Below the pieces are notes generated by a model. That model made no database searches. It saw only the letters and a program-made list of their open reading frames with translations, and was not told where the DNA came from. Of a DNA stretch of 64,000 nucleotides, positions 9,835 to 61,183 are shown piece by piece. Origin of the DNA: Candidatus Bathyarchaeia archaeon (GTDB lineage Archaea; Thermoproteota; Bathyarchaeia; Bathyarchaeales; DTEX01); NCBI GenBank assembly GCA_038882715.1, contig JAVZNR010000002.1:21093-85092 (forward strand), in the 5' to 3' direction. How positions within the stretch are numbered: the first letter of the stretch is position 1; the number at the start of each line of letters is the position of its first letter. The translations under genes and the position numbers were made by a program.

Positions 9835-11199
9835 CTATCCGCCTAGCTTTCTAAGGATCTCTTTCTCGGCGAATGAAACTAAACTGTTTAATTTGTCTTC
9901 GTCTTTAGCCTCAGCGTTCATCCTTATGAGCGGCTGCGTATTAGACGGCCTTACAAGAAACCAGCCGTCCTCGGTGATAACTTTAACCCCATCAACAGTT
10001 ACTGTTTTATATCCTAGGGATCTAAATTCTTCTGCGAGCTCCTCAACAACCTTAAACTTCACTTCATCTGGACATCTGTAGCTTCTGACTGGTATCTGCG
10101 GGTACTTGGGCATAGAATCAATTATGTCAGAGAGTTTTCTCCCGTCTTTCGATATGACCTCAGCCACCTTTAGGCTAGCATATACAGCGTCGTCGAAACC
10201 ATACATGTCTCTGAAGTAGAAGTGGCCGCTTGTTTCTCCGCCTAAAACAGCGTTCTCGCTTATCATCTTATCGTAGATGTATGTGTGTCCAACGCGGCTT
10301 AAAACCGGTTTTCCGCCAAAAGACCTTATGGTTTCCTCAACGATCATGGAGCAGCTAACCTCATAGACAACGGCTGCGCCCTTATCCCTGCTTAAATAGT
10401 ATCTGGCTAGCAGCGATAAAATCATGTTGCTTGGGACTAGTCGACCCCTATCGTCGATGAAGATTGCCCTGTCACCATCACCATCAAAGCTAACCCCGAA
10501 ATCAGCCCCACACTCATGTACAAGCCTCCCCAGCTCCTCTAGAGTCTGCTCGTTAGGCTCTGGTGGGTGCTTTGAGAATGAGCCATCCGGCTCACCGTAT
10601 ATAGTGTAGACGTCTAAACCAACCTTCCTGAAAACTCTCGGTATCAGTACGGTGCACGATCCTCCACCGGGGTCAGCCGCCACTTTCAGGCTTCCAGCCA
10701 CATCCACTTTTTTCGAGACATGCTCCTCGTAATCTCTGATGGCTTCGGTGTTGATTTTAACCGCCCCTTTCTTTGATTCCCTGAAAACTCCCTTAAGCGC
10801 CATCTCCTTGAATTCTTCCATTCCGCTGCCCATGCATAAGAACCCCTTGCCAAACAGGATTTTAAAGCCGTTCCATTCAGGCGGGTTATGTGACGCTGAA
10901 ACCATGACCCCGCCGTCCGCACGATAATGTCTCGTAGCGAAGTAGAGCAGCGGTGTTGTCACAACTCCTATATCCTCAACGTTTAATCCGCAAGCGGTCA
11001 TACCGCTTATAAGAGCGCTGCGGAGGGATCCGCTGCTTAGCCTTACGTCTCTGCCAACGATGAAGGTTTTCCCCTCGTTGCCAGCGTAGTCCGCTAAGGC
11101 TCTCCCTATAATGTGGGCTACTCTCTCATCTAGGTCTAAGCCATAGATGCCGCGTATATCGTAGGCTCTAAAGATGCTTTCAGGTACCGCTGAGATCAT
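9835..11199 (-). CDS. phosphoglucosamine/phosphomannomutase family protein
   Basis: Active-site loop SASHNPPEWNGFK, metal loop FDGDGDR, GETSGH. Confidence 0.85.
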   Translation of the reverse strand: MISAVPESIFRAYDIRGIYGLDLDERVAHIIGRALADYAGNEGKTFIVGRDVRLSSGSLRSALISGMTACGLNVEDIGVVTTPLLYFATRHYRADGGVMVSASHNPPEWNGFKILFGKGFLCMGSGMEEFKEMALKGVFRESKKGAVKINTEAIRDYEEHVSKKVDVAGSLKVAADPGGGSCTVLIPRVFRKVGLDVYTIYGEPDGSFSKHPPEPNEQTLEELGRLVHECGADFGVSFDGDGDRAIFIDDRGRLVPSNMILSLLARYYLSRDKGAAVVYEVSCSMIVEETIRSFGGKPVLSRVGHTYIYDKMISENAVLGGETSGHFYFRDMYGFDDAVYASLKVAEVISKDGRKLSDIIDSMPKYPQIPVRSYRCPDEVKFKVVEELAEEFRSLGYKTVTVDGVKVITEDGWFLVRPSNTQPLIRMNAEAKDEDKLNSLVSFAEKEILRKLGG

Positions 11200-11327
11200 C
11201 CCCAGACACCGACTTCAAACATTCAGAAATATTTATGGTGAACCAGAATATTTAATTTATTGGAGCTGTCATTTAGCGTAAAACTTAACGTGGCGTCGGA
11301 TTAGGAAAGGGGGATAGGTGAAAATTT

Positions 11328-11753
11328 TTGAAGGCAGTTGATGAAATAGTGGCGTTTGGGCATCCGCTCATAAAGGCTACTCATAAATCTACATTTGAAG
11401 TGACGAAGGAGAGCTTTCTCACCGAGAAGGGCGACTGCATAATCGCTGTTAGAGCTAATAAAGCTGCAAGAGACCTAAATGAAGATTTTAAGGAGGCTGC
11501 GAAGAAGGCGGACGCCACTATAACAATTATTATTGAGGTGGACGGCGAAAGGGAAATCGTTAAAGCCTACGGTAATCCAAATCTGACCCTTACGCATCCA
11601 ACAGACATTGTTGTCAGAAAAAGCAGCTACGTCTGCGGCAGAACTGTGGCGATCAGGGCGGATAAGGCTGCATGTGACCTCTCAAGAAGCCTTATGGGTA
11701 AACTTAAGGGGCATGAGAGACAGGTAAAGATAACGTTGATAGCTGAGAGATAG
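11328..11753 (+). CDS. DUF371 family protein
   Basis: GHPLIKATHKSTFEVTKE...GDCIIAV pattern typical of archaeal DUF371. Confidence 0.6.
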   Translation: MKAVDEIVAFGHPLIKATHKSTFEVTKESFLTEKGDCIIAVRANKAARDLNEDFKEAAKKADATITIIIEVDGEREIVKAYGNPNLTLTHPTDIVVRKSSYVCGRTVAIRADKAACDLSRSLMGKLKGHERQVKITLIAER

Positions 11754-11768
11754 AATGCGACATATCGC

Positions 11769-12140
11769 TTATTTAAGTACTTTCTCTAGGTCGCTTGGCT
11801 TGTAGCATCTGATCCCGTAAGACAAGGCTCTCCTCTTAGCTTTCTCCGACACATCGTTTGAGATTAATATCGGAACCACCATTACACCCAGCTTTTCTTC
11901 AAGCAGATGCTTAACATATTCATCGAAATCCTTCTTGGTCTGCGAGATAGCCCTGGGTCCGGCTGGACTTGATAAATCTTTAACCTGAACAACTAGGATT
12001 AAGCCCCCTCTATGAAGGATAAGATCCTGAATGCGGCTTCCATGCCTCCTCCTAAGCTCGACATCCCAACCATATGATTTAGCCATTTCGGCAACATATT
12101 CTTCGAGACCCAAGTTTAAGCCTCCAACTCTTTTCCGCAA
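11769..12140 (-). CDS. Mrr/Hjc-like PD-(D/E)xK endonuclease-fold protein
   Basis: GLEEYVAEMAKSYGWDVEL...QDLILHRGGLILVVQVKD (D...Q-x-K core); 123 aa. Confidence 0.5.
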   Translation of the reverse strand: MRKRVGGLNLGLEEYVAEMAKSYGWDVELRRRHGSRIQDLILHRGGLILVVQVKDLSSPAGPRAISQTKKDFDEYVKHLLEEKLGVMVVPILISNDVSEKAKRRALSYGIRCYKPSDLEKVLK

Positions 12141-28675: not shown

Positions 28676-30430
28676 CTACTTTCTGTTTGAAACGTAGACT
28701 TTTATTGTTGCTTCGGCGGCATTCCCATATTTGTCGTAGGCTTTAGCTGTTATCGTGTGCCATCCATCCTTAACAGACCTAGTGTTCCAGCGATATACGT
28801 ATGGCTCAGCGCTAACAGTGGCAGCCAGCTTACCGTCAACATAGAACTCAACGCGGCTTACGCCAGACTCATCCCAGGCGGAAGCAACGACATCAATCGT
28901 CCTAGAGGCGGTCGAGCCATCCAGAGGCTTAACAATGCTGACGGCGGGCGGCTTAACATCCCTAAAATTAACGACGTTAACGGAGACAGCATTAGACTCG
29001 CCAACATTGCCAGCAGCATCATAAGCCCTAGCAACCAACGTATATGCGCCGTCAGGCTCAGTGGTAGTATCCCAATAGAACTCATAGGGCTCCTCAGAGT
29101 CAACGGCAAACAACACGCCATTCTTGAACAATTCAACCCTAGCTACGCCCCTATCGTCGCTCGCGCTAACAGACACGACAACAGCGCCCGAAACAGTATC
29201 CCCGCTCCTAGGATAAGTTATCTCAACCCTAGGCGGAGTAGTGTCAGGAGGAGGCGGAGCCGCTCCGGCGGCAGCTTTAAGGGCTTCGTAGGCGTTAACC
29301 CTACCCCAACCATAATAAACATCGTAGCCAGTATCACCCAAATCAACAGCAGTAGACTCAAGAATTTGCTCTATATCCGCTGGTGTAAGGGACGGATTGG
29401 CCGAGAAGATTAGGGCTGCTACGCCAGCAACAATAGGCGCCGAGAAAGACGTCCCAGAGACAGAGCCGTAGCTCCCACCTTTAACGGTCGTATATATGCT
29501 TACGCCGGGAGCCGATAGGTCGACATAAGGCCCATAAGACGAGAAGCTCGCAAGGATGTCGCCACTAGCTGTGGCGCTAACCGATACAATATATGGGTTA
29601 TCCGCGTAACCCTCATACTTGCCAGTATTACCAGCAGCCGCAACAGCCAAACCACCCTTATCCATAAAATATTTCGCAGCGCTTGAGAGCGATGAACCGC
29701 TGAAAATCTGGAAGCTCATCACAGCAACCTTAGCGCCGCGGTCAGCAGCGTAGGTGAGACCCTTGCTTAGAAGCGAGTAGCTGGTGTAGCCGCTCGTATC
29801 CGTAACCCTAACTGGCAAAATTACACAGTTCCACGCCACGCTGGCCACACCGATCCCGTTATTCGCTATGGCGGCCGCTGTCCCGGCAACCTTGGTCCCA
29901 TGCCCATAAACATCGCTTGTATCAGCATTATTATCATAGAAATTCCAGCCCTGAAGCAGCTTACCAGCCAAATCCGGATGTGATGGGTCAACACCGCTAT
30001 CAAGTACAGCGACAACAATGCTTTGGCTTCCGGTTGAAACGTCCCAAGCGCCCGGAGCACCTATCGTTGGAAGATGCCACTGCTTAGAGTAATATGGGTC
30101 GTTAGGGGTCTGAGAAGGCTCGATTAAGCGGTTCTCCTCAACAAAATCAACCATGGGGTTCCTCATCAAAGCGGATTTAACGCGCTCCGCCGCCCCCTCC
30201 GGAACCGATATCACCAAGACGCTTATCTGCGGTATCTTATCGGTAACGCATGCGCCTATAGAGCGGAGCAAACCTTCGCCAGCATGCCTACAGACACCGG
30301 GCTTAAACCTCAACAGTAATTCAGCTCTGCTAGGTTTAGTGGAAACAACAAGCGTGGGAAGCATGGCTGAAAAGAGCAGCGGCAGCAAAACCACGATAAG
30401 CATTAATCTGCCGCTAAAACGAAAAATCAT
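28676..30430 (-). CDS. secreted subtilisin-like serine protease (S8) with two C-terminal Ig-like domains
   Basis: Signal peptide and catalytic VAVLDSGVD, HGTKVAG and GTSFSAP. Two units of about 90 aa (RVELFKNGVLF.../RVEFYVDGKLA...) follow. Confidence 0.9.
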   Translation of the reverse strand: MIFRFSGRLMLIVVLLPLLFSAMLPTLVVSTKPSRAELLLRFKPGVCRHAGEGLLRSIGACVTDKIPQISVLVISVPEGAAERVKSALMRNPMVDFVEENRLIEPSQTPNDPYYSKQWHLPTIGAPGAWDVSTGSQSIVVAVLDSGVDPSHPDLAGKLLQGWNFYDNNADTSDVYGHGTKVAGTAAAIANNGIGVASVAWNCVILPVRVTDTSGYTSYSLLSKGLTYAADRGAKVAVMSFQIFSGSSLSSAAKYFMDKGGLAVAAAGNTGKYEGYADNPYIVSVSATASGDILASFSSYGPYVDLSAPGVSIYTTVKGGSYGSVSGTSFSAPIVAGVAALIFSANPSLTPADIEQILESTAVDLGDTGYDVYYGWGRVNAYEALKAAAGAAPPPPDTTPPRVEITYPRSGDTVSGAVVVSVSASDDRGVARVELFKNGVLFAVDSEEPYEFYWDTTTEPDGAYTLVARAYDAAGNVGESNAVSVNVVNFRDVKPPAVSIVKPLDGSTASRTIDVVASAWDESGVSRVEFYVDGKLAATVSAEPYVYRWNTRSVKDGWHTITAKAYDKYGNAAEATIKVYVSNRK

Positions 30431-51849: not shown

Positions 51850-52977
51850 ATGAAGGGTATGGGCTCAGTATATTCTATGAGAACCCACTCGCTATCTTCT
51901 AGAGAGAATTACTTAAGGAGCGTTGAATTCAGAAGTCCGGAGTACATACCGTGCCGAGTAATGGTCACATGGCCCCTCTGGCTCGCATATGGGGAGAAAC
52001 TTGAGAGAATATATCAGGCACATAAATTTGTCATCCAACCTAAAGACGTCCACCCTTCTTGGAAAGACGTCATTAAATCAAATGAAAAGCTAAGCGATGC
52101 GCAGCGGTTTATTCCGAGAGCAAGCCGCATGCTTACAGATCCCTTCGGATGCGTATGGAGCTTCAACATAGAAGGCTATCAAGGCCAAGTTGTAAGGCAT
52201 CCGCTCGAAAGATGGGAGAACTTTAAAAACTATGTTTTTCCAGACCCGGAGAAGGGTTTGCCCTCAGAGGGTTCAGATAAACTTACACCTTGGAGCGAGA
52301 TAGCAACAAATATCGAGAGGATGAGATTTGAGGGAAAACTGGTTCAAATATCGCTCACGCACGGCTTATTTTTCCAGAGACTCTACTATCTACGCGGCTT
52401 CACAAATTTAATGAAGGATTTCATGCAGCGGCCGCCGCAGATCTACGAATTGGTGGATAAGCTAACCGAGTATATTTTAGAGCTGGTTGATAGGCTTCTG
52501 GAATGCGGTCGAATAGACGTTGTATATATTGGGGATGATTTAGGAACTCAGACAAGAATGCCCATCAGCCCATCCACATTCAGAGAATTCATATACCCAA
52601 GCTATAGGAAAATCTTTGGGAGAATAAGGGATAGGGGAGTTCACGTGTATTTCCACTCGGATGGACACGTTGTAGAAGTATTGGATCAGATTATTGAGGC
52701 TGGAGCAAGCGTGCTGAACGTTCAGGACAGAGTGAACGGCTTAGAAAACATAAGAGCTTTATGCAGGGGCAAGGTATGCGTGGACATTGATGTTGATAGG
52801 CAGTATCTCGTGCCTTTCGGGAAACCGGAGGAAATTAAATCCCACATTAAAAGGATTGTTGAATGCCTCTCTCTGAAGAGGGGTGGTTTAATGATTGAGG
52901 CGGAGGTTCACCCGCCAACACCGCTAGCCAACATTGAGGCTCTCGCCGAATCCATGGAGGAGAATATGTGGCTGTGA
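51850..52977 (+). CDS. URO-D family protein
   Basis: GLFFQRLYYLRGFTNLMKDF...VVYIGDDLGTQTRMPISPSTFREFIYPSYRKIF...VYFHSDGHVVEVLDQIIEAGASVLNVQD. Confidence 0.75.
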   Translation: MKGMGSVYSMRTHSLSSRENYLRSVEFRSPEYIPCRVMVTWPLWLAYGEKLERIYQAHKFVIQPKDVHPSWKDVIKSNEKLSDAQRFIPRASRMLTDPFGCVWSFNIEGYQGQVVRHPLERWENFKNYVFPDPEKGLPSEGSDKLTPWSEIATNIERMRFEGKLVQISLTHGLFFQRLYYLRGFTNLMKDFMQRPPQIYELVDKLTEYILELVDRLLECGRIDVVYIGDDLGTQTRMPISPSTFREFIYPSYRKIFGRIRDRGVHVYFHSDGHVVEVLDQIIEAGASVLNVQDRVNGLENIRALCRGKVCVDIDVDRQYLVPFGKPEEIKSHIKRIVECLSLKRGGLMIEAEVHPPTPLANIEALAESMEENMWL

Positions 52978-54788: not shown

Positions 54789-56141
54789 TCATCCAGACCG
54801 TATTACTTCCGCTTCTAAATAGTTTACGTGGGCCGCTGTTACCTCAACACTAATGAATTTTCCAAGCAGATTCTCCCCACTCTTAACAACTATCGGTTTA
54901 TAAGCATAGTTTCTTCCAATCCATGAGTCTCCCTGCCCCTTCTCGTCAACAAGCACTTCACCCCTCCATCCAACCCACCTATAGTTTCTCTTCAAAGAGA
55001 TTTTATTCGCAGCATTTGTCATTAAACGGCTTCTGTAAGCGACCTCTTTGCTCTCAACCTGCCTCATTCTAGCGGCCAACGTGTTCGGCCTAGGGAAGAA
55101 CTTAGATATGTTAACCACATCCGGTTCAACCTCCTCCACTAGCCTTAGGGTCTTTTCAAATGCCTCCCTGCTTTCTCCCGGAAAACCACATATGATGTCT
55201 GTGGCGATGGTGATGTCTGGAAAATCCTTTCTGAATGCTTTGACTATAGCCTTAAATTCCTCAACGGTGTATTTACGGTTCATCATCTTTAAAACATCGT
55301 TATCTCCGCTTTGAACCGGCAGATGAAGAAACTTGAAGATCCGCTCGTCTTTATAGACATCTATTAGTTCAGGCAACATCCTTATAGCATGGTTTGGGTT
55401 CATCATGCCAACCCTTATGAAGAATCTGCCGCCAATGCGACAGCACTCTTTAAGTAGATCAACAAGATTTGTGCCAGCATCTAATCCATATGCTCCGTTA
55501 TCTTGGGATGTCAACCAAACCTCCTTAACCCCCTCAGAAACGGCTTCCTTAAGCCTTTCCACTATGAGCTCTTTTGGATAAGAGAAGAGCACGCCTCTGG
55601 CAAATCTAACGCAGCAAAACGAGCATGCGCCTAAACATCCCTCGGCTATAGGAATAATTTCAATCGCTTGATTAACCCTGATCTTCGGCTGCCCAACCTT
55701 AATAACTGGTTTTTCGGAAAAGAGAATTCTTCCCCTCTCATTTTTTTCCGCGGCTTTCAACGCTAAACCAATCTTGTCAACGCTATATGGATCTAAAACC
55801 GCCGATATGTTTTGGGAAGCCTTCATTATCGCATTAAGGTTTATTTTTGGTAGGCAGCCTGCCACTATGATTGGTTTATCGAGGTTGCTCAGCGCCCGCA
55901 GCCTACTCAATATGCGGTCTTCAGTGGGCTTTTTAACGCCGCAAGTATTCATTAGAATCACGTTGGCTTCTTCGGGTTTACTGACTGGGCTATAGCCTGA
56001 GCGAAAAATATATGCAAGCATTATTTCGAGGTCAGCTTTATTCGCTGCGCAACCATAGTTTTCAATATAGATGGTTCTTCCTAAACCAGTCTTCCCTTCG
56101 ATGATTAAGGTCTCTGAATCAAGAGTAGATTCACTATACAT
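54789..56141 (-). CDS. archaeal MiaB/CDKAL1-type tRNA methylthiotransferase (radical SAM)
   Basis: N-terminal UPF0004 Cys residues (YGCAANK, NTCGVK, AGC), radical SAM CLGACSFCCV, C-terminal TRAM-like domain. Confidence 0.85.
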   Translation of the reverse strand: MYSESTLDSETLIIEGKTGLGRTIYIENYGCAANKADLEIMLAYIFRSGYSPVSKPEEANVILMNTCGVKKPTEDRILSRLRALSNLDKPIIVAGCLPKINLNAIMKASQNISAVLDPYSVDKIGLALKAAEKNERGRILFSEKPVIKVGQPKIRVNQAIEIIPIAEGCLGACSFCCVRFARGVLFSYPKELIVERLKEAVSEGVKEVWLTSQDNGAYGLDAGTNLVDLLKECCRIGGRFFIRVGMMNPNHAIRMLPELIDVYKDERIFKFLHLPVQSGDNDVLKMMNRKYTVEEFKAIVKAFRKDFPDITIATDIICGFPGESREAFEKTLRLVEEVEPDVVNISKFFPRPNTLAARMRQVESKEVAYRSRLMTNAANKISLKRNYRWVGWRGEVLVDEKGQGDSWIGRNYAYKPIVVKSGENLLGKFISVEVTAAHVNYLEAEVIRSG

Positions 56142-56266: not shown

Positions 56267-58672
56267 GTGGAGGGAGAATTGCCTACACACCGTTTCTGGC
56301 TACTGGACATAAACTACGAGGTGAAAGATCATCAGCCGGAGATCTGGCTTTGGGGCGTTAGCGAAAATGGGGAGAGAGTCCTAGTGATAGACAGGGGTTT
56401 CCCAACATACTTCTACGTTTTGCCAGCACTTGGCGAGGATCCTGAAAAAATAGCTGAAAGGATAGAATTGGCGAAAACTAGCCTGCCATTCATTACGGGC
56501 CTAGAAGTGGTTGACCGAAGATTTTTTGGAAAACCCATAAGGGCTGTAAAGGTTTACTGCCAAGATCCGGAACTGGTTCCAGAATACGTGAAGTACATTT
56601 CGAAAATTAGGGGAGTTGAGAGCTGCCTAGAAGACGACATTAGATACTCAATGCGCTACTTAATAGACAATAATGTTGTTCCCTGCGGCTGGCATGAAGT
56701 TGAAGCTGACGAAACCCCTAATATCATGGGTGTGCAAGTCGAGAAGGTGCTGCTGGCGAAATCTAGGCCCAGATATCTCCCGGATGTTATTAAGATGCCG
56801 GATTTAAGAATTATGGGCTTTTCAACGGCGTTTTATAGCCGTAAAGGTTCTCCGAAGCCTGAGATAAACCCTGTTGTCGTAATATCGGTGGCCACGAATG
56901 CTGGTGAGGAAAAGCAGTTTGTCGCCGATCCCTCCGGAGATGATGGCGAGATTATTGAGGCTTTCATCAATTATGTGAGGGAGTTTGATCCCGACATAAT
57001 TGTTGGGTTTGAAACCAACAGAAGAGATATTCAGTATTTGATGGTGCGTGCGAGAAAAAACGGTCTAACTCTGAAAATAGGCAGGACGGACGCTGAGCCT
57101 CATACAAGCACGTATGGCCACATGTCGATAACTGGCAGAGCGCACATAGACCTATTTGATTATGCCGATGAGTTTCCTGAAGTTAAGATAAAGACTCTGG
57201 AGAATATCGCTGATTACTTAGGCGTCATGAAGATTGGGGAAAGAACTCTAATTGAGGATTTTGAGGTTGCGCAGTATTGGGAGGATGAGAGGAAAAGGCC
57301 AATTTTATTGAAGTTCTCAAGGGAGAACGCTAGATGCGTGATGGGGGTTATAGAGCGCATAATTGATTTTGCGGTTCAGCTTTCTAGCCTAGTTGGCTTA
57401 CCGCTGGATCACGTTGGCACAGCAGCAGTAGGCTTTAGAGTTGAATGGTTTCTGATACGTCACGCCTATCAGATCGGTGAATTAACTCCGAAAAGGCTTG
57501 AGAGACCATACATCCCATATGCTGGAGCAATAGTTCTGGAGCCTAAGCCCGGAATACATAATGATGTCGCCGTTTTAGACTTTAAATCCATGTATCCCAG
57601 CATAATGATAACCTTTAACGTTTCACCTGACACGTATATTCCGCCCGAAGAGCCGGAGCCTCCGTCTGGAGCTTACGCGGCGCCGGAGGTTAATCATAGG
57701 TTTAGGAAGGAGCCGCGTGGCTTTTACTCTGAGGTTTTATCAAAGCTCGTTAAGGCTAGAGACAAGATACGTGAGGACCTTAAGAAAATAGATTTGAGAA
57801 GCCCTGAATATAGGCTGCTGGACGCGCGGCAGAAAGCGATTAAAGTGATCGCGAACGCAACCTATGGTTACGCTGGTTGGATAGGTGCAAGATGGTATAT
57901 TAAGCCTGTGGCTGAAGCTGTTACGGCTTGGGGTAGATATATTATAATGAATGCTATAAAAATGGCTAAAAGCTTAGGCTTAGAGGTGATTTACGGCGAC
58001 ACAGACAGCATATTTGTGAAAAACGATCCTGAGAAGATTGAGAGCCTATCTAAAATGATTGGGGAAAAATTGGGGTTAGAGATTAAGCCAGATAAAATAT
58101 ATTTGCGCGCCCTTTTCACCGAAGCAAAGAAGCGCTACTGCGGGCTAATGCCGGACGGCAGGCTCGATATGGTTGGGTTAGAAGTTGTTAGAGGAGACTG
58201 GGCTAACGTTGCTAAAAATATACAGGAGAAGGTTTTAGAGATAATACTGAAGGAGCAATCGGTTAAGGGAGCCGTAGAGTACGTGCGCAGATATATAGCG
58301 GATCTAAGAGAAAGGAAAGTTCCATTTAAAGACTTGATTATATGGAAGACCTTAACGAAAAATTTGGAGGAATACGAGGTTAAAGCCCCCCATGTCGAAG
58401 CCGCCAAACTGCTCCAGAAGGAGGGCTGGGTGCTAAACGTTGGAGATAAGGTGGGTTTCATTATATCTACAGGTTCAGGCAAGCTTTATGAGCGGGCTAA
58501 ACCATATATTTTCGCCTCATACAGTGATATAGATATAGAATATTATATAACCAACCAGATTATTCCAGCGGCACTAAGAATATTATCACTCTTTAACGTT
58601 AAGGAAAGCGATTTGCTGCCGCCTAAATCCGCTAAAGCGCAAACCCTCTTTGATTTTCTAGGCAAAAAATAG
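56267..58672 (+). CDS. polB: family-B DNA polymerase
   Basis: Motif A DFKSMYPS, motif B KVIANATYGY, motif C YGDTDS. No intein-sized insertion. Exo I and Exo III motifs are substituted (see findings). Confidence 0.9.
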   Translation: MEGELPTHRFWLLDINYEVKDHQPEIWLWGVSENGERVLVIDRGFPTYFYVLPALGEDPEKIAERIELAKTSLPFITGLEVVDRRFFGKPIRAVKVYCQDPELVPEYVKYISKIRGVESCLEDDIRYSMRYLIDNNVVPCGWHEVEADETPNIMGVQVEKVLLAKSRPRYLPDVIKMPDLRIMGFSTAFYSRKGSPKPEINPVVVISVATNAGEEKQFVADPSGDDGEIIEAFINYVREFDPDIIVGFETNRRDIQYLMVRARKNGLTLKIGRTDAEPHTSTYGHMSITGRAHIDLFDYADEFPEVKIKTLENIADYLGVMKIGERTLIEDFEVAQYWEDERKRPILLKFSRENARCVMGVIERIIDFAVQLSSLVGLPLDHVGTAAVGFRVEWFLIRHAYQIGELTPKRLERPYIPYAGAIVLEPKPGIHNDVAVLDFKSMYPSIMITFNVSPDTYIPPEEPEPPSGAYAAPEVNHRFRKEPRGFYSEVLSKLVKARDKIREDLKKIDLRSPEYRLLDARQKAIKVIANATYGYAGWIGARWYIKPVAEAVTAWGRYIIMNAIKMAKSLGLEVIYGDTDSIFVKNDPEKIESLSKMIGEKLGLEIKPDKIYLRALFTEAKKRYCGLMPDGRLDMVGLEVVRGDWANVAKNIQEKVLEIILKEQSVKGAVEYVRRYIADLRERKVPFKDLIIWKTLTKNLEEYEVKAPHVEAAKLLQKEGWVLNVGDKVGFIISTGSGKLYERAKPYIFASYSDIDIEYYITNQIIPAALRILSLFNVKESDLLPPKSAKAQTLFDFLGKK

Positions 58673-58695: not shown

Positions 58696-59835
58696 CTAGT
58701 CAAGTATATCGTCAAAAGTTAGCAGGTTCACGCTCAAAGGCTGCTTAACAATTTCTGATATACGCGCCGCTATAAGATACTTAATGTTCTTTTCGCTAGC
58801 TATATCGACGAGCCTCTGGGTTATTATGCCGTCAAAAACCACGGTGTTTACTCCCTCAAACTCTTTTAATTTATCGGCGAGCTCGCTCACTGGAAGCCTA
58901 CCTATCTGCTCCATCCTATCGTTAAATAGCACGGCCTCAAAGGTTCCCTTAAGGCTTTGGGCAGCCTCAGCTATCTCCCTAGGCATAAGCACCTTCTTCC
59001 TCTTCTTCCTTCGCTCAATTATTTCTCCAACCGGAACCTTATTCTGCAGGGCGATCTCAATCTCCTTCGCGGTTAAATCTTCAACCTCTTTCCCCCTTGG
59101 AGCTCTAGCCACATACTTTATGTTTGCAACCTGCAGCAGTTCTTTAAGGATTAGGTCGCCGCCATGATCCCCGTCGAGGAAGGCTGTTGCCTCTTTCTCC
59201 TTGGTTAATTTAATTACTGTTTCCGGTATCTTTACGCCCTCCAAGGCTATAACGTTGTATATTCCGTGCTTCACAAGATTTATTACGTCAGCTCTACCCT
59301 CAACAATAATAATATCTTTAGCTGAGTCAACATCCGGACCAGCTGGAAGTCTCTCTGGACCATACTCTCTAATCTTAGGTGACCTAAGTATTTCTGCAAC
59401 CTCACGAAATATCTCCTCTGTTTCAGGCATCGTTTCTAGGCTCCATTTGTGCAGTATCTCCTTAGCTCTCTCAATTATCGCTTTACGTTTTGTCTCTCTA
59501 ACATCCTCGATTTTTTCTAGAGAAACGCGGGCTGCGCATGGCCCAACCCTATCTATGCTTTCAACGCTCGCAGCTATTATTGCTGTTGAGACTTTATCTA
59601 GGCTTGTCGGTATAACTATTGTTCCAACAGTTTTATTGTCCTTTTGGGAGGCGATTTCCACCTCTATTCTGCCAATTCTCCCGGTTTTTTGGAGCTCCCT
59701 TAAATCTAATTCCGCGCCGAAAAGTCCTTCTGTTTGCCCGAACACGGCACCTATAACGTCAGGTTTCTCAACTACTCCATCAACCTCAAATTTCGCTCGA
59801 ATCACATATTTAATAGCGGGTAATGGTGATGTCAT
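58696..59835 (-). CDS. dnaG: archaeal DnaG (Toprim) primase/exosome subunit
   Basis: KYVIRAKFEVDGVVEKPDVIGAVFGQTEGL N-terminus. Toprim motifs IVEGRADV and LDGDHGG. Confidence 0.9.
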   Translation of the reverse strand: MTSPLPAIKYVIRAKFEVDGVVEKPDVIGAVFGQTEGLFGAELDLRELQKTGRIGRIEVEIASQKDNKTVGTIVIPTSLDKVSTAIIAASVESIDRVGPCAARVSLEKIEDVRETKRKAIIERAKEILHKWSLETMPETEEIFREVAEILRSPKIREYGPERLPAGPDVDSAKDIIIVEGRADVINLVKHGIYNVIALEGVKIPETVIKLTKEKEATAFLDGDHGGDLILKELLQVANIKYVARAPRGKEVEDLTAKEIEIALQNKVPVGEIIERRKKRKKVLMPREIAEAAQSLKGTFEAVLFNDRMEQIGRLPVSELADKLKEFEGVNTVVFDGIITQRLVDIASEKNIKYLIAARISEIVKQPLSVNLLTFDDILD

Positions 59836-60025: not shown

Positions 60026-61183
60026 ATGTTAACTCCCAGGGAAAGAATGATCCGGGTTTTCTGTCTTGAAGAGCCTGACAGAGTGCCAGTGTTTGAGCAG
60101 GAAATTCAGCCCCCAACATCTGAAGCTGTCTTGGGCCGGAGCTGCACCATTAACAATAAGAGGCTGCTTCTCGAGATTCTTGAGAAGGGAGAAATGAGCT
60201 GCAGTCTGCTAGATAGGATGGTTGAAGACTATGTCGACTTGGCCAGAAAGCTTAAGCTGGACGCTCTTGTCTTAGGTTCAAATATAGCTCCCGGCGATTT
60301 CACTCCCTATACGCGCATTTCAGAAAATGAGTGGCGGGGCGATGGGGTTGCCATTTACTATTTTTCTGGCAGCAATGAACTAATGACCATTGACCTCGAG
60401 ATCCGTGAGAGGGGTATTGAGGGCTTAAAGCGTAGGATTGAAGAGCTAAGAGAGCCATTAAATATGGGTCCAGAAAACTTTTATGTCTTCAAAAGGGTCA
60501 AAGAAGAGTTGAGAAGAAGGAATCTTGATCTATTCATCTTCGTCGGATGCACTTTGTTTGATTGGCATGGAAGAGGATGGACTGATCTTGCGTTAAAATG
60601 GTTGTACACTAAACCAGGCTTGATGAGGGAATATCTAGACGCCTATAATAGAAGGGTTATCGAAGTGGTGAAGATGGAAATCGATTTAGGAGCAGACGCA
60701 GTGTTAGACGGAGGCGACCTCGCTTATAGGCATGGACCTATGCTTTCGCCCAGAATGTATAGGGAGTTTCTGCTTCCCTATCAAAGAATGCATTCAGATA
60801 TTTTTCATAGGAGAGGCGTTTTTGTCGTTAACCGCTCAGACGGAAATATATGGCCAATAGCCGACGACTTTCTAATAAGTTCAGGGGTAGATGGTTACTG
60901 TGAAATAGATAAAAGCTCTGGCATGGATCTAGGCGAGCTAAAGGAGAAATATGGACATAAGATCTGTCTCCTAGGGAACGTAGACTGCGCAAAAACCTTG
61001 GTCTTTGGAAGTATAAAAGACGTTATGGAAGAAACAATAGATTGCATAATGAAGGCAGCGCCTGGAGGAGGTTATGTCCTATGTTCAAGCAATGTCATAC
61101 ATCATGGAGTTAAACCCGAAAACTATTTGGCTATGCTGAAGGCTGGTCGAAAACATGGCAGCTATAATAGAAGACTAGGTTAA
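60026..61183 (+). CDS. URO-D family protein
   Basis: PDRVPVFEQ N-terminus; GDLAYRHGPMLSPRMYREFLLPYQRM...VNRSDGNIWPIADDFLISSGVDGY...GGGYVLCSSNVI. Confidence 0.7.
   Translation: MLTPRERMIRVFCLEEPDRVPVFEQEIQPPTSEAVLGRSCTINNKRLLLEILEKGEMSCSLLDRMVEDYVDLARKLKLDALVLGSNIAPGDFTPYTRISENEWRGDGVAIYYFSGSNELMTIDLEIRERGIEGLKRRIEELREPLNMGPENFYVFKRVKEELRRRNLDLFIFVGCTLFDWHGRGWTDLALKWLYTKPGLMREYLDAYNRRVIEVVKMEIDLGADAVLDGGDLAYRHGPMLSPRMYREFLLPYQRMHSDIFHRRGVFVVNRSDGNIWPIADDFLISSGVDGYCEIDKSSGMDLGELKEKYGHKICLLGNVDCAKTLVFGSIKDVMEETIDCIMKAAPGGGYVLCSSNVIHHGVKPENYLAMLKAGRKHGSYNRRLG

Follow-up and report, generated by a model that had tools for sequence, protein, structure and literature searches.

Archaeal family-B DNA polymerases of the PolB3 group are treated as proofreading enzymes, and members of the group are the source of high-fidelity polymerases for the polymerase chain reaction. 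DEDD exonucleases require carboxylates to bind two metal ions, and single D141A- or E143A-type changes abolish the exonuclease activity of the Pfu and KOD polymerases, in which D141A/E143A is the standard exonuclease-minus (exo-minus) mutation. Here we describe a family-B DNA polymerase gene with a canonical polymerase site and a largely substituted exonuclease site, which lies in a stretch of 64,000 nucleotides from a Candidatus Bathyarchaeia archaeon (GenBank assembly GCA_038882715.1, contig JAVZNR010000002.1, positions 21,093 to 85,092 of the forward strand). The whole of this stretch is referred to below as the window.

A dead exonuclease is not new in principle within the B family, being found in Pol alpha, Pol zeta and PolB2. 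According to PMC7544198, the catalytic subunits of Pol alpha and Pol zeta combine a dead exonuclease domain with an active polymerase, and PolB2 has a degenerate polymerase site with one Asp in motif C and lacks Exo III; the same paper labels the Pyrobaculum calidifontis enzyme 5MDN as PolB3. In Thermococcus kodakarensis PolD alone is sufficient for genome replication. The 3'-5' exonuclease of PolD is borne by DP1 (PMC3984812, PMC6355029). In the literature searched, the coverage of which was incomplete, we found nothing specific on PolD or exo-dead PolB in Bathyarchaeia, and PMC4104785 and PMC7544198 (two large PolB surveys) and PMC12680538 (a 2025 replisome study) mention neither exo-inactivated B3 enzymes nor a Bathyarchaeia PolB. 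A clade-wide exo-dead PolB3 therefore appears to be undescribed, and may be noted elsewhere.

A PolB3-type polymerase with a substituted exonuclease site

The gene and its motifs are located as follows.

56267..58672, + strand: family-B DNA polymerase gene (PolB3 lineage), from the open reading frame (ORF) listing, Pfam matches PF00136 and PF03104 and the Protein Data Bank (PDB) match 5mdn_A
56819..56833, + strand: Exo I, FSTAF in place of FDIE(V/T), with Asp replaced by Ser186 and Glu by Ala188 (phmmer, MAFFT, hmmalign)
57011..57028, + strand: Exo II, ETNRRD in place of NxxxFD (NSNGFD in 5MDN), with Asp254 kept and the Asn and Phe replaced (phmmer, hmmalign)
57314..57328, + strand: Exo III, FSREN in place of YxxxD (YvlDD in 5MDN), with Tyr replaced by Phe350 and Asp by Asn354 (phmmer, MAFFT, hmmalign)
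57578..57601, + strand: polymerase motif A, DFKSMYPS, with catalytic Asp438 and steric-gate Tyr443 (translation)
57842..57871, + strand: polymerase motif B, KVIANATYGY, with Lys526 (translation)
57992..58009, + strand: polymerase motif C, YGDTDS, with catalytic Asp578 and Asp580 (translation)

Counted from the GTG at 56267, the polymerase ORF encodes 801 amino acids (aa). A TTG at 56279 is preceded in the window sequence by GGAGG at 56270-56274, and a 99%-identical database orthologue (P0001) is 797 aa long and is called from the position that matches this TTG. The true start is therefore probably TTG 56279, which would give a protein of 797 aa, and the residue numbers used here, which count from the GTG as in earlier work on this DNA, would be 4 too high.

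The protein matches the Pfam DNA_pol_B family (PF00136; 3e-69, 234 bits against a cutoff of 23), and its N-terminal exonuclease domain matches DNA_pol_B_exo1 (PF03104; 7.2e-22). The NCBIfam matches are generic archaeal PolB models only, all of them under the equivalog cut-offs. In a phmmer search of the PDB the best solved relative is 5MDN (5mdn_A, E 9.1e-238), followed by the PolBs of Thermococcales (E ~1e-109), and chains of Pol alpha and Pol delta match at E 1e-45 to 1e-54. We assign the gene on these grounds as the Bathyarchaeia orthologue of the archaeal PolB3 lineage, which includes Pyrobaculum PolB3 and the PolB3-type enzyme of Sulfolobaceae.

The phmmer alignment with 5mdn_A contains no gaps around the three exonuclease motifs. 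At Exo I, lrvlaFDIEVYnerGSP of 5mdn_A is paired with lrimgFSTAFYsrkGSP of the window protein, and the engineered exo-minus KOD polymerase 4K8Z (FAIAT) falls on the same position; IVGYNSNGFDWPYL is paired without gaps with IVGFETNRRDIQYL; and at Exo III lmrYvlDDvrs is paired with llkFsrENarc. The MAFFT and hmmalign registers agree with that of phmmer. In terms of the Pfu enzyme, D141 and E143 correspond to S186 and A188, N210 and F214 to E249 and R253, D215 to the retained D254, and Y311 and D315 to F350 and N354. Of the four metal-binding carboxylates of the DEDD site only Asp254 is left, the other three having been exchanged together with the catalytic Tyr, and the set that defines a functional DEDD site (DxE in Exo I, NxxxFD in Exo II, YxxxD in Exo III) is absent from the protein. 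The fingers of the polymerase are intact as well, and the KKRY thumb motif is present.

The substitutions had first been read by eye. That original prediction, which concerned positions 56819-57340 (aa 185-358 of the ORF), described replacement of the Exo I Asp and Glu, retention of the Exo II Asp, exchange of Tyr for Phe and Asp for Asn in Exo III, and canonical motifs A, B and C. Its register proves to be correct in every case, as the three alignment methods agree on FSTAF and on FSREN (aa 350-354), phmmer and hmmalign both place Asp254 in ETNRRD, the polymerase motifs are confirmed as DFKSMYPS, KVIANATYGY and YGDTDS, and rigorous alignment puts no acidic residue at the Exo I Asp and Glu or the Exo III Asp positions. 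A protein that is deficient in proofreading and competent in polymerisation, as was proposed, is the natural reading of this sequence and is supported by the joint loss of three carboxylates and the Tyr, with all polymerase catalytic residues kept.

The substitutions across Bathyarchaeia relatives

A homologue search returned 2622 proteins at E <= 1e-30, and residue counts were made on the query together with the best 120 of these (n=121). The 120 proteins share 63-99% identity with the query, and all those that are named are proteins of Bathyarchaeia or Bathyarchaeota metagenome-assembled genomes (MAGs). The Exo I Asp position is Ser in all 121 sequences, and Glu is found in none of them at the Exo I Glu position, which is Ile in 106 and Val in 12. 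The Exo II Asp is present in 114/121, with Asn in 0/121 at the Exo II Asn position; in Exo III the Tyr position is Phe in 118/121 and the Asp position is Asn in 120/121. The Asp and Tyr of motif A, the Lys of motif B and both Asp residues of motif C are each present in 121/121. A wider comparison set of 160 full-length sequences comprised the query, 5mdn, PolBs from GTDB loci and cluster representatives, and 107 of the 160 possess the complete D-E-D-Y-D set. Since the substitutions are near-invariant among the 121 sequences while most of the wider set is intact, we regard the loss of the exonuclease site as a fixed lineage trait, and not as a private mutation or the product of chance.

Several close relatives, both exo-intact and exo-degenerate (P0123, P0124, P0139 and others, 1150-1300 aa), are longer by ~400 aa and match the query in two stretches with a break near motif C, a pattern that is as expected for intein insertions and suggests their presence. 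The window polymerase gene contains no such intein-like insertion.

Phylogenetic analysis

A single hidden Markov model alignment of 150 representatives of 50%-identity clusters, 32 PolBs from GTDB genomes and 5MDN was used to construct a neighbour-joining, distance-based tree with 100 bootstraps. The query sits in a clade with bootstrap 96 that contains the exo-intact crenarchaeal PolB3 enzymes (5MDN and a Sulfolobaceae/Sulfolobus cluster) and one exo-intact Korarchaeota sequence. Together with the best PDB match, the tree answers the question of classification among the PolB clades that accompanied the original prediction: the protein falls in PolB3. Some 36 exo-degenerate sequences are found in the same clade and group together at bootstrap ~60. 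Among them are all Bathyarchaeia loci, Candidatus Culexarchaeum nevadense, Nitrososphaeria MAGs, a Geothermarchaeota MAG and some MAGs labelled Thermoprotei, and each keeps at most one of the four carboxylates. The branches closest to the query, which come from Bathyarchaeia, Culexarchaeum and Nitrososphaeria MAGs, are exo-degenerate without exception. Beyond the core Bathyarchaeia the exonuclease positions are occupied by unrelated residues (His, Tyr, Trp, Lys and Arg), as expected once catalytic constraint has been lost.

Two further sets of sequences were encountered in this analysis. A separate PolB group with bootstrap 100 (L027, L029, L031, L032 and L034, match ~10001-12046) comes from MAGs labelled Thermoproteota, Nitrososphaerota or uncultured archaeon, one isolate being named 'Kor2'. 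These PolBs are also exo-degenerate, with FSxLI at Exo I, YLxxK at Exo III and an unusual motif C, YVDTDG, and may represent an independent loss of proofreading. In addition, an exo-degenerate protein of PolB3 type that is 46% identical to the query (P0128/P0285) bears the database name 'DNA polymerase II [bacterium HR11]', its contig being 257 kb long; this points either to mislabelling of an archaeal genome or to transfer of the gene to a bacterium.

Retention of the exonuclease domain

The catalytically degenerate domain is under strong purifying selection and is not decaying. In comparison with a GTDB relative that is 88% identical (L001), the ratio of nonsynonymous to synonymous substitution rates (dN/dS) is 0.043 for the exonuclease domain, 0.057 for the polymerase domain and ~0.06 for the whole gene, values that are approximate because dS is ~1-1.6 and near saturation. 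At comparable identity of palm and fingers, the ratio of exonuclease-domain to palm identity is 0.68-0.79 in the exo-dead clade versus 0.71-0.95 in exo-intact PolBs, so that the domain is slightly less conserved in the former. An AlphaFold2 model built on 44 sequences has a mean predicted local distance difference test (pLDDT) score of 85, with most blocks of the exonuclease domain (residues 176-365) at 84-95, and superimposes on 5mdn with a template modelling score (TM-score) of 0.87 when normalised to the query and 0.91 when normalised to the target. The model indicates that the N-terminal 3'-5' exonuclease fold is retained. In shape the new residues stay close to those they replace (Ser and Asn for Asp, Phe for Tyr), and because these replacements are themselves conserved the pocket appears to be retained rather than decaying, which suggests that selection acts on its architecture rather than on catalysis.

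Two other regions of the protein were also compared. At the positions of the N-terminal read-ahead pocket for uracil or hypoxanthine (Y7, P36, Y37, P90, V93, I114 and F116 in the Tgo and KOD enzymes), Y17, Y48, P101 and I125 are conserved, and Tyr stands in place of F116, which is also the case in 5mdn. The P36 position varies between Thr, Ala and Pro and the V93 position between Ile, Val, Met and Leu, while the other pocket residues are mostly conserved. The second region is the C-terminal tail.

58640..58660, + strand: QTLFDFL, a C-terminal motif resembling a PCNA-interacting protein (PIP) box, residues 792-798 (recurrence in orthologue tails)

Tails of the type QTL(F/L)(D/E)F(F/L)G recur in many of the best 120 orthologues; the core L-x-x-F-(F/L) is recurrent, and L794 and F797 are invariant in alignment A1. 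The Gln lies one position off the canonical PIP pattern. The motif is predicted to bind PCNA.

PolD in Bathyarchaeia

The original prediction had suggested that proofreading might be supplied in trans, for example by PolD. A DP1 phosphoesterase domain of Pyrococcus was ~93% identical to P. abyssi 5IHE in a PDB search, and the 5IHE sequence, used as bait, retrieved a DP1 protein labelled Bathyarchaeota (P0329). A search with P0329 returned at least 120 close DP1 proteins, of which the named ones are partly Bathyarchaeota or Bathyarchaeum and the others carry generic archaeal or product names. All five phosphoesterase motifs (DxH, GD, GNHD, H and GHxH) are intact in 7/7 DP1 proteins of the Bathyarchaeia type. 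One DP1 (P0548, at ~332 kb) shares a 619,464-bp Bathyarchaeia JGI contig, Ga0315314_1000004, with an exo-dead PolB (P0083, at ~131.5 kb) that is 64% identical to the query and has Ser, Asp, Phe and Asn at the key exonuclease positions. Because these two genes lie on one contig and the DP1 motifs are intact, at least one Bathyarchaeia genome can be said to combine a predicted exo-dead PolB3 with an apparently competent PolD nuclease. The suggestion of proofreading in trans is upheld in so far as an intact DP1 accompanies an exo-dead orthologue on a related contig; it finds no counterpart in the window, which holds no DP1.

Searches by tblastn with PolB and DP1 baits detected no second PolB or DP1 in the window or in the 79 fetched loci. 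There is no ORF of DP2 size in the window, where the ten largest other ORFs encode surface proteins, hydrolases and metabolic enzymes, and DP2 is not among the four ORFs of 1075-1358 aa in the fetched loci, which are a helicase, an FG-GAP/PKD protein and two without family. On Ga0315314_1000004 the DP1 gene (~332 kb; L081 10001-13314) is flanked by genes for Endo_dU (PF01949, NucS-family) and Cdc6/Orc1, an arrangement which suggests that genes for replication and for the handling of mismatches are clustered near an origin.

Genomic neighbourhood

The gene downstream of the polymerase is oriented towards it.

58696..59835, - strand: archaeal DnaG-type TOPRIM protein, tail-to-tail with the polymerase and 24 bp from its stop (Toprim domain matches)

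This adjacency of PolB and DnaG is conserved in Bathyarchaeia loci L001-L007, L010, L011, L014 and L080 and persists in Bathyarchaeia contigs down to ~55% PolB identity; in Korarchaeia-like and Aenigmarchaeota loci DnaG is located a few kb from PolB. DnaG is a conserved neighbour by this comparison. Adjoining the polymerase is a 450-aa ORF (54789-56141) that we take, by eye, to encode a MiaB-type radical-SAM methylthiotransferase. Other neighbours are a tRNA-Ser, a phosphoglucomutase and an aminotransferase. The guanine plus cytosine (GC) content is even across the window, and synteny around PolB is kept on Bathyarchaeia contigs of up to 619 kb.

Two paralogues (51850-52977 and 60026-61183, both + strand) flank the polymerase region. 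Their similarity to URO-D (PF01208, ~1e-21) is confined to the C-terminal half of that family, and they may be methyltransferase-type members rather than uroporphyrinogen decarboxylases. Further away, an 897-aa repeat protein with DUF7507/DUF11, SdrD B-like and CARDB domains (23254-25947, + strand) and a 584-aa S8 subtilase with Big_7 domains and a fervidolysin-like prodomain (28676-30430, - strand) are probably secreted or surface proteins.

Interpretation and alternatives

We consider it probable that the gene encodes a polymerisation-competent, non-proofreading PolB3 that works beside a proofreading PolD. The PolB3 would extend primers on the PCNA clamp and be unable to excise its own errors, with the exonuclease domain probably kept as a folded module that serves polymerase architecture and the handling of the single-stranded primer end. 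Proofreading replication would be supplied by PolD, the DP1 nuclease of which appears to be intact in Bathyarchaeia, and PolB would most likely carry out accessory replicative synthesis such as gap filling and primer displacement, error removal being left to PolD or to repair. We infer the loss of exonuclease activity, the binding of PCNA and the division of labour with PolD from sequence, and an accessory, lagging-strand role is proposed by analogy with Thermococcales.

Several points weigh against this interpretation. PolD DP1 was seen on the contig of a 64%-identical orthologue, and a PolD in the genome from which the window derives is presumed; these genomes may carry a further exo-proficient PolB, for example PolB1. 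The exo-degenerate subgroup is only moderately supported, and the tree is compatible with one ancient loss or with several. The lagging-strand role is borrowed from Thermococcales, whose PolB retains its exonuclease. Finally, a weak or non-canonical nuclease that makes use of Asp254, Ser186 and Asn354 is conceivable.

A more far-reaching version of a non-proofreading PolB3 with a proofreading PolD can be put forward tentatively. In Bathyarchaeia, and probably in related TACK lineages (Culexarchaeia and some Nitrososphaeria, for example), the replisome might long have contained two polymerases, a dedicated PolB that does not proofread and a PolD that does. The conserved Ser/Asp/Asn pocket would then be no relic but a binding site, in which a frayed 3' end is sensed or parked for handover to DP1 or to a mismatch nuclease. 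If this is true, Archaea would have arrived independently at a counterpart of the division between Pol alpha and Pol delta/epsilon in eukaryotes. In the extreme case, with no second PolB able to proofread in these genomes, each nucleotide that PolB incorporates would be corrected only in trans.

The main alternative, a specialised translesion polymerase or mismatch extender like Pol zeta or PolB2/Dpo2 that is not a component of the replisome, is rather unlikely. Translesion enzymes of the B family have typically lost proofreading, PMC8764526 and PMC7544198 describe PolB2 as an extender in translesion synthesis, and the latter gives B3 polymerases a role in either replication or repair. However, in contrast to PolB2, the polymerase site is canonical throughout and does not vary, both Asp residues of motif C being kept, the whole protein is under strong purifying selection, and the gene is present across the sampled clade in a conserved position beside DnaG. 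The flank genes of L080 give no RadA-like or LexA Pfam matches of the kind reported beside PolB2 (PMC4104785), the flanks in the window having been only partly scanned. With a canonical site, a distribution across the sampled clade and a neighbourhood that, in the part scanned, shows no sign of a damage-response operon, a translesion role is the less likely one.

An enzyme that does proofread, through a non-canonical set of Ser186, Asp254 and Asn354, is highly improbable. The near-invariance of Ser186 and Asn354, and the presence of Asp254 in most of the 121 sequences, imply that the pocket is selected for something. Activity at this site is nevertheless difficult to reconcile with the textbook dependence of DEDD exonucleases on carboxylates for two metal ions, the textbook loss of exonuclease activity in Pfu and KOD after a single Exo I change, and the loss here of three carboxylates and the Tyr. 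The Exo I Glu position is moreover a hydrophobic Ile or Val in 118/121 sequences, and distant clade members have the unrelated residues listed above.

An artefact (a mis-registered alignment, a sequencing error or a decaying pseudogene) might have been feared while the alignment was by eye only, and is rejected in view of one gapless register from three independent methods, an intact ORF, substitutions shared by 120/120 listed homologues from many samples and the low whole-gene dN/dS. The polymerase of a virus, plasmid or other mobile element (family-B enzymes being common in those of Archaea; PMC4104785) is likewise rejected, as the gene lies among housekeeping neighbours at even GC content in synteny across Bathyarchaeia contigs, with no terminal repeats, integrase or capsid genes seen flanking it.

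Comparison with known systems

The closest described enzyme is P. calidifontis PolB3, 5MDN, with which the window protein shares 47-49% identity, the close structural match and the strongly supported clade described above, the same domain order and polymerase motifs, and an xLxDFLG tail at the C terminus. The two differ in the exonuclease site: 5MDN has a full FDIEV, NSNGFD and YvlDD, where the window protein has FSTAF, ETNRRD and FSREN. The engineered exo-minus PolBs of Thermococcales (D141A/E143A in Pfu, KOD and 9°N; 4K8Z) resemble the window protein in that the same Exo I carboxylates have been removed and the polymerase core is intact. They are, however, laboratory mutants of proofreading enzymes and only ~31% identical to it, whereas the loss in the window protein is natural, fixed in a clade, and extends to Exo III (Tyr to Phe and Asp to Asn) and to the Asn and Phe of Exo II. 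Naturally exo-minus archaeal PolBs of this kind are possible scaffolds for applications in sequencing or with modified nucleotides.

PolB2/Dpo2 is likewise an archaeal B-family polymerase with a degenerate exonuclease site, found beside other replicases. The window protein departs from PolB2 in its canonical motifs A, B and C, in an Exo III helix that can be recognised, and in its grouping with B3. Membership of PolB2/Dpo2 was rejected for this protein, as motif C (YGDTDS) has both Asp residues, the Exo III helix is present and the adjoining genes are the MiaB-like ORF (by eye) and DnaG, where PolB2 is accompanied by arCOG07300 and an inactivated RadA. A fixed and conserved exo-dead PolB3 with a pristine polymerase site is a natural experiment on the purpose of archaeal PolB when PolD is present, and makes the division of labour between PolB and PolD testable in a second, very abundant archaeal group.

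A functional parallel lies in eukaryotic Pol alpha and Pol zeta, which also join an active polymerase site to a folded, dead exonuclease domain and work beside proofreading replicases. Unlike Pol alpha, the window protein lacks the Cys-rich C-terminal domain that binds a B subunit, its last 30 residues being free of Cys, and it lies outside the Delta-like clade. Membership of the Pol alpha type was rejected on the PIP-like tail, the absence of a Cys-rich C-terminal domain and matches to Pol alpha and Pol delta that are far weaker than that to 5mdn. The exonuclease loss in PolB3 is accordingly placed inside archaeal PolB3 and, from this comparison, judged independent of that in Pol alpha. It provides a precedent for a replicative-type PolB that loses proofreading yet keeps the domain, a step through which Pol alpha is assumed to have arisen.

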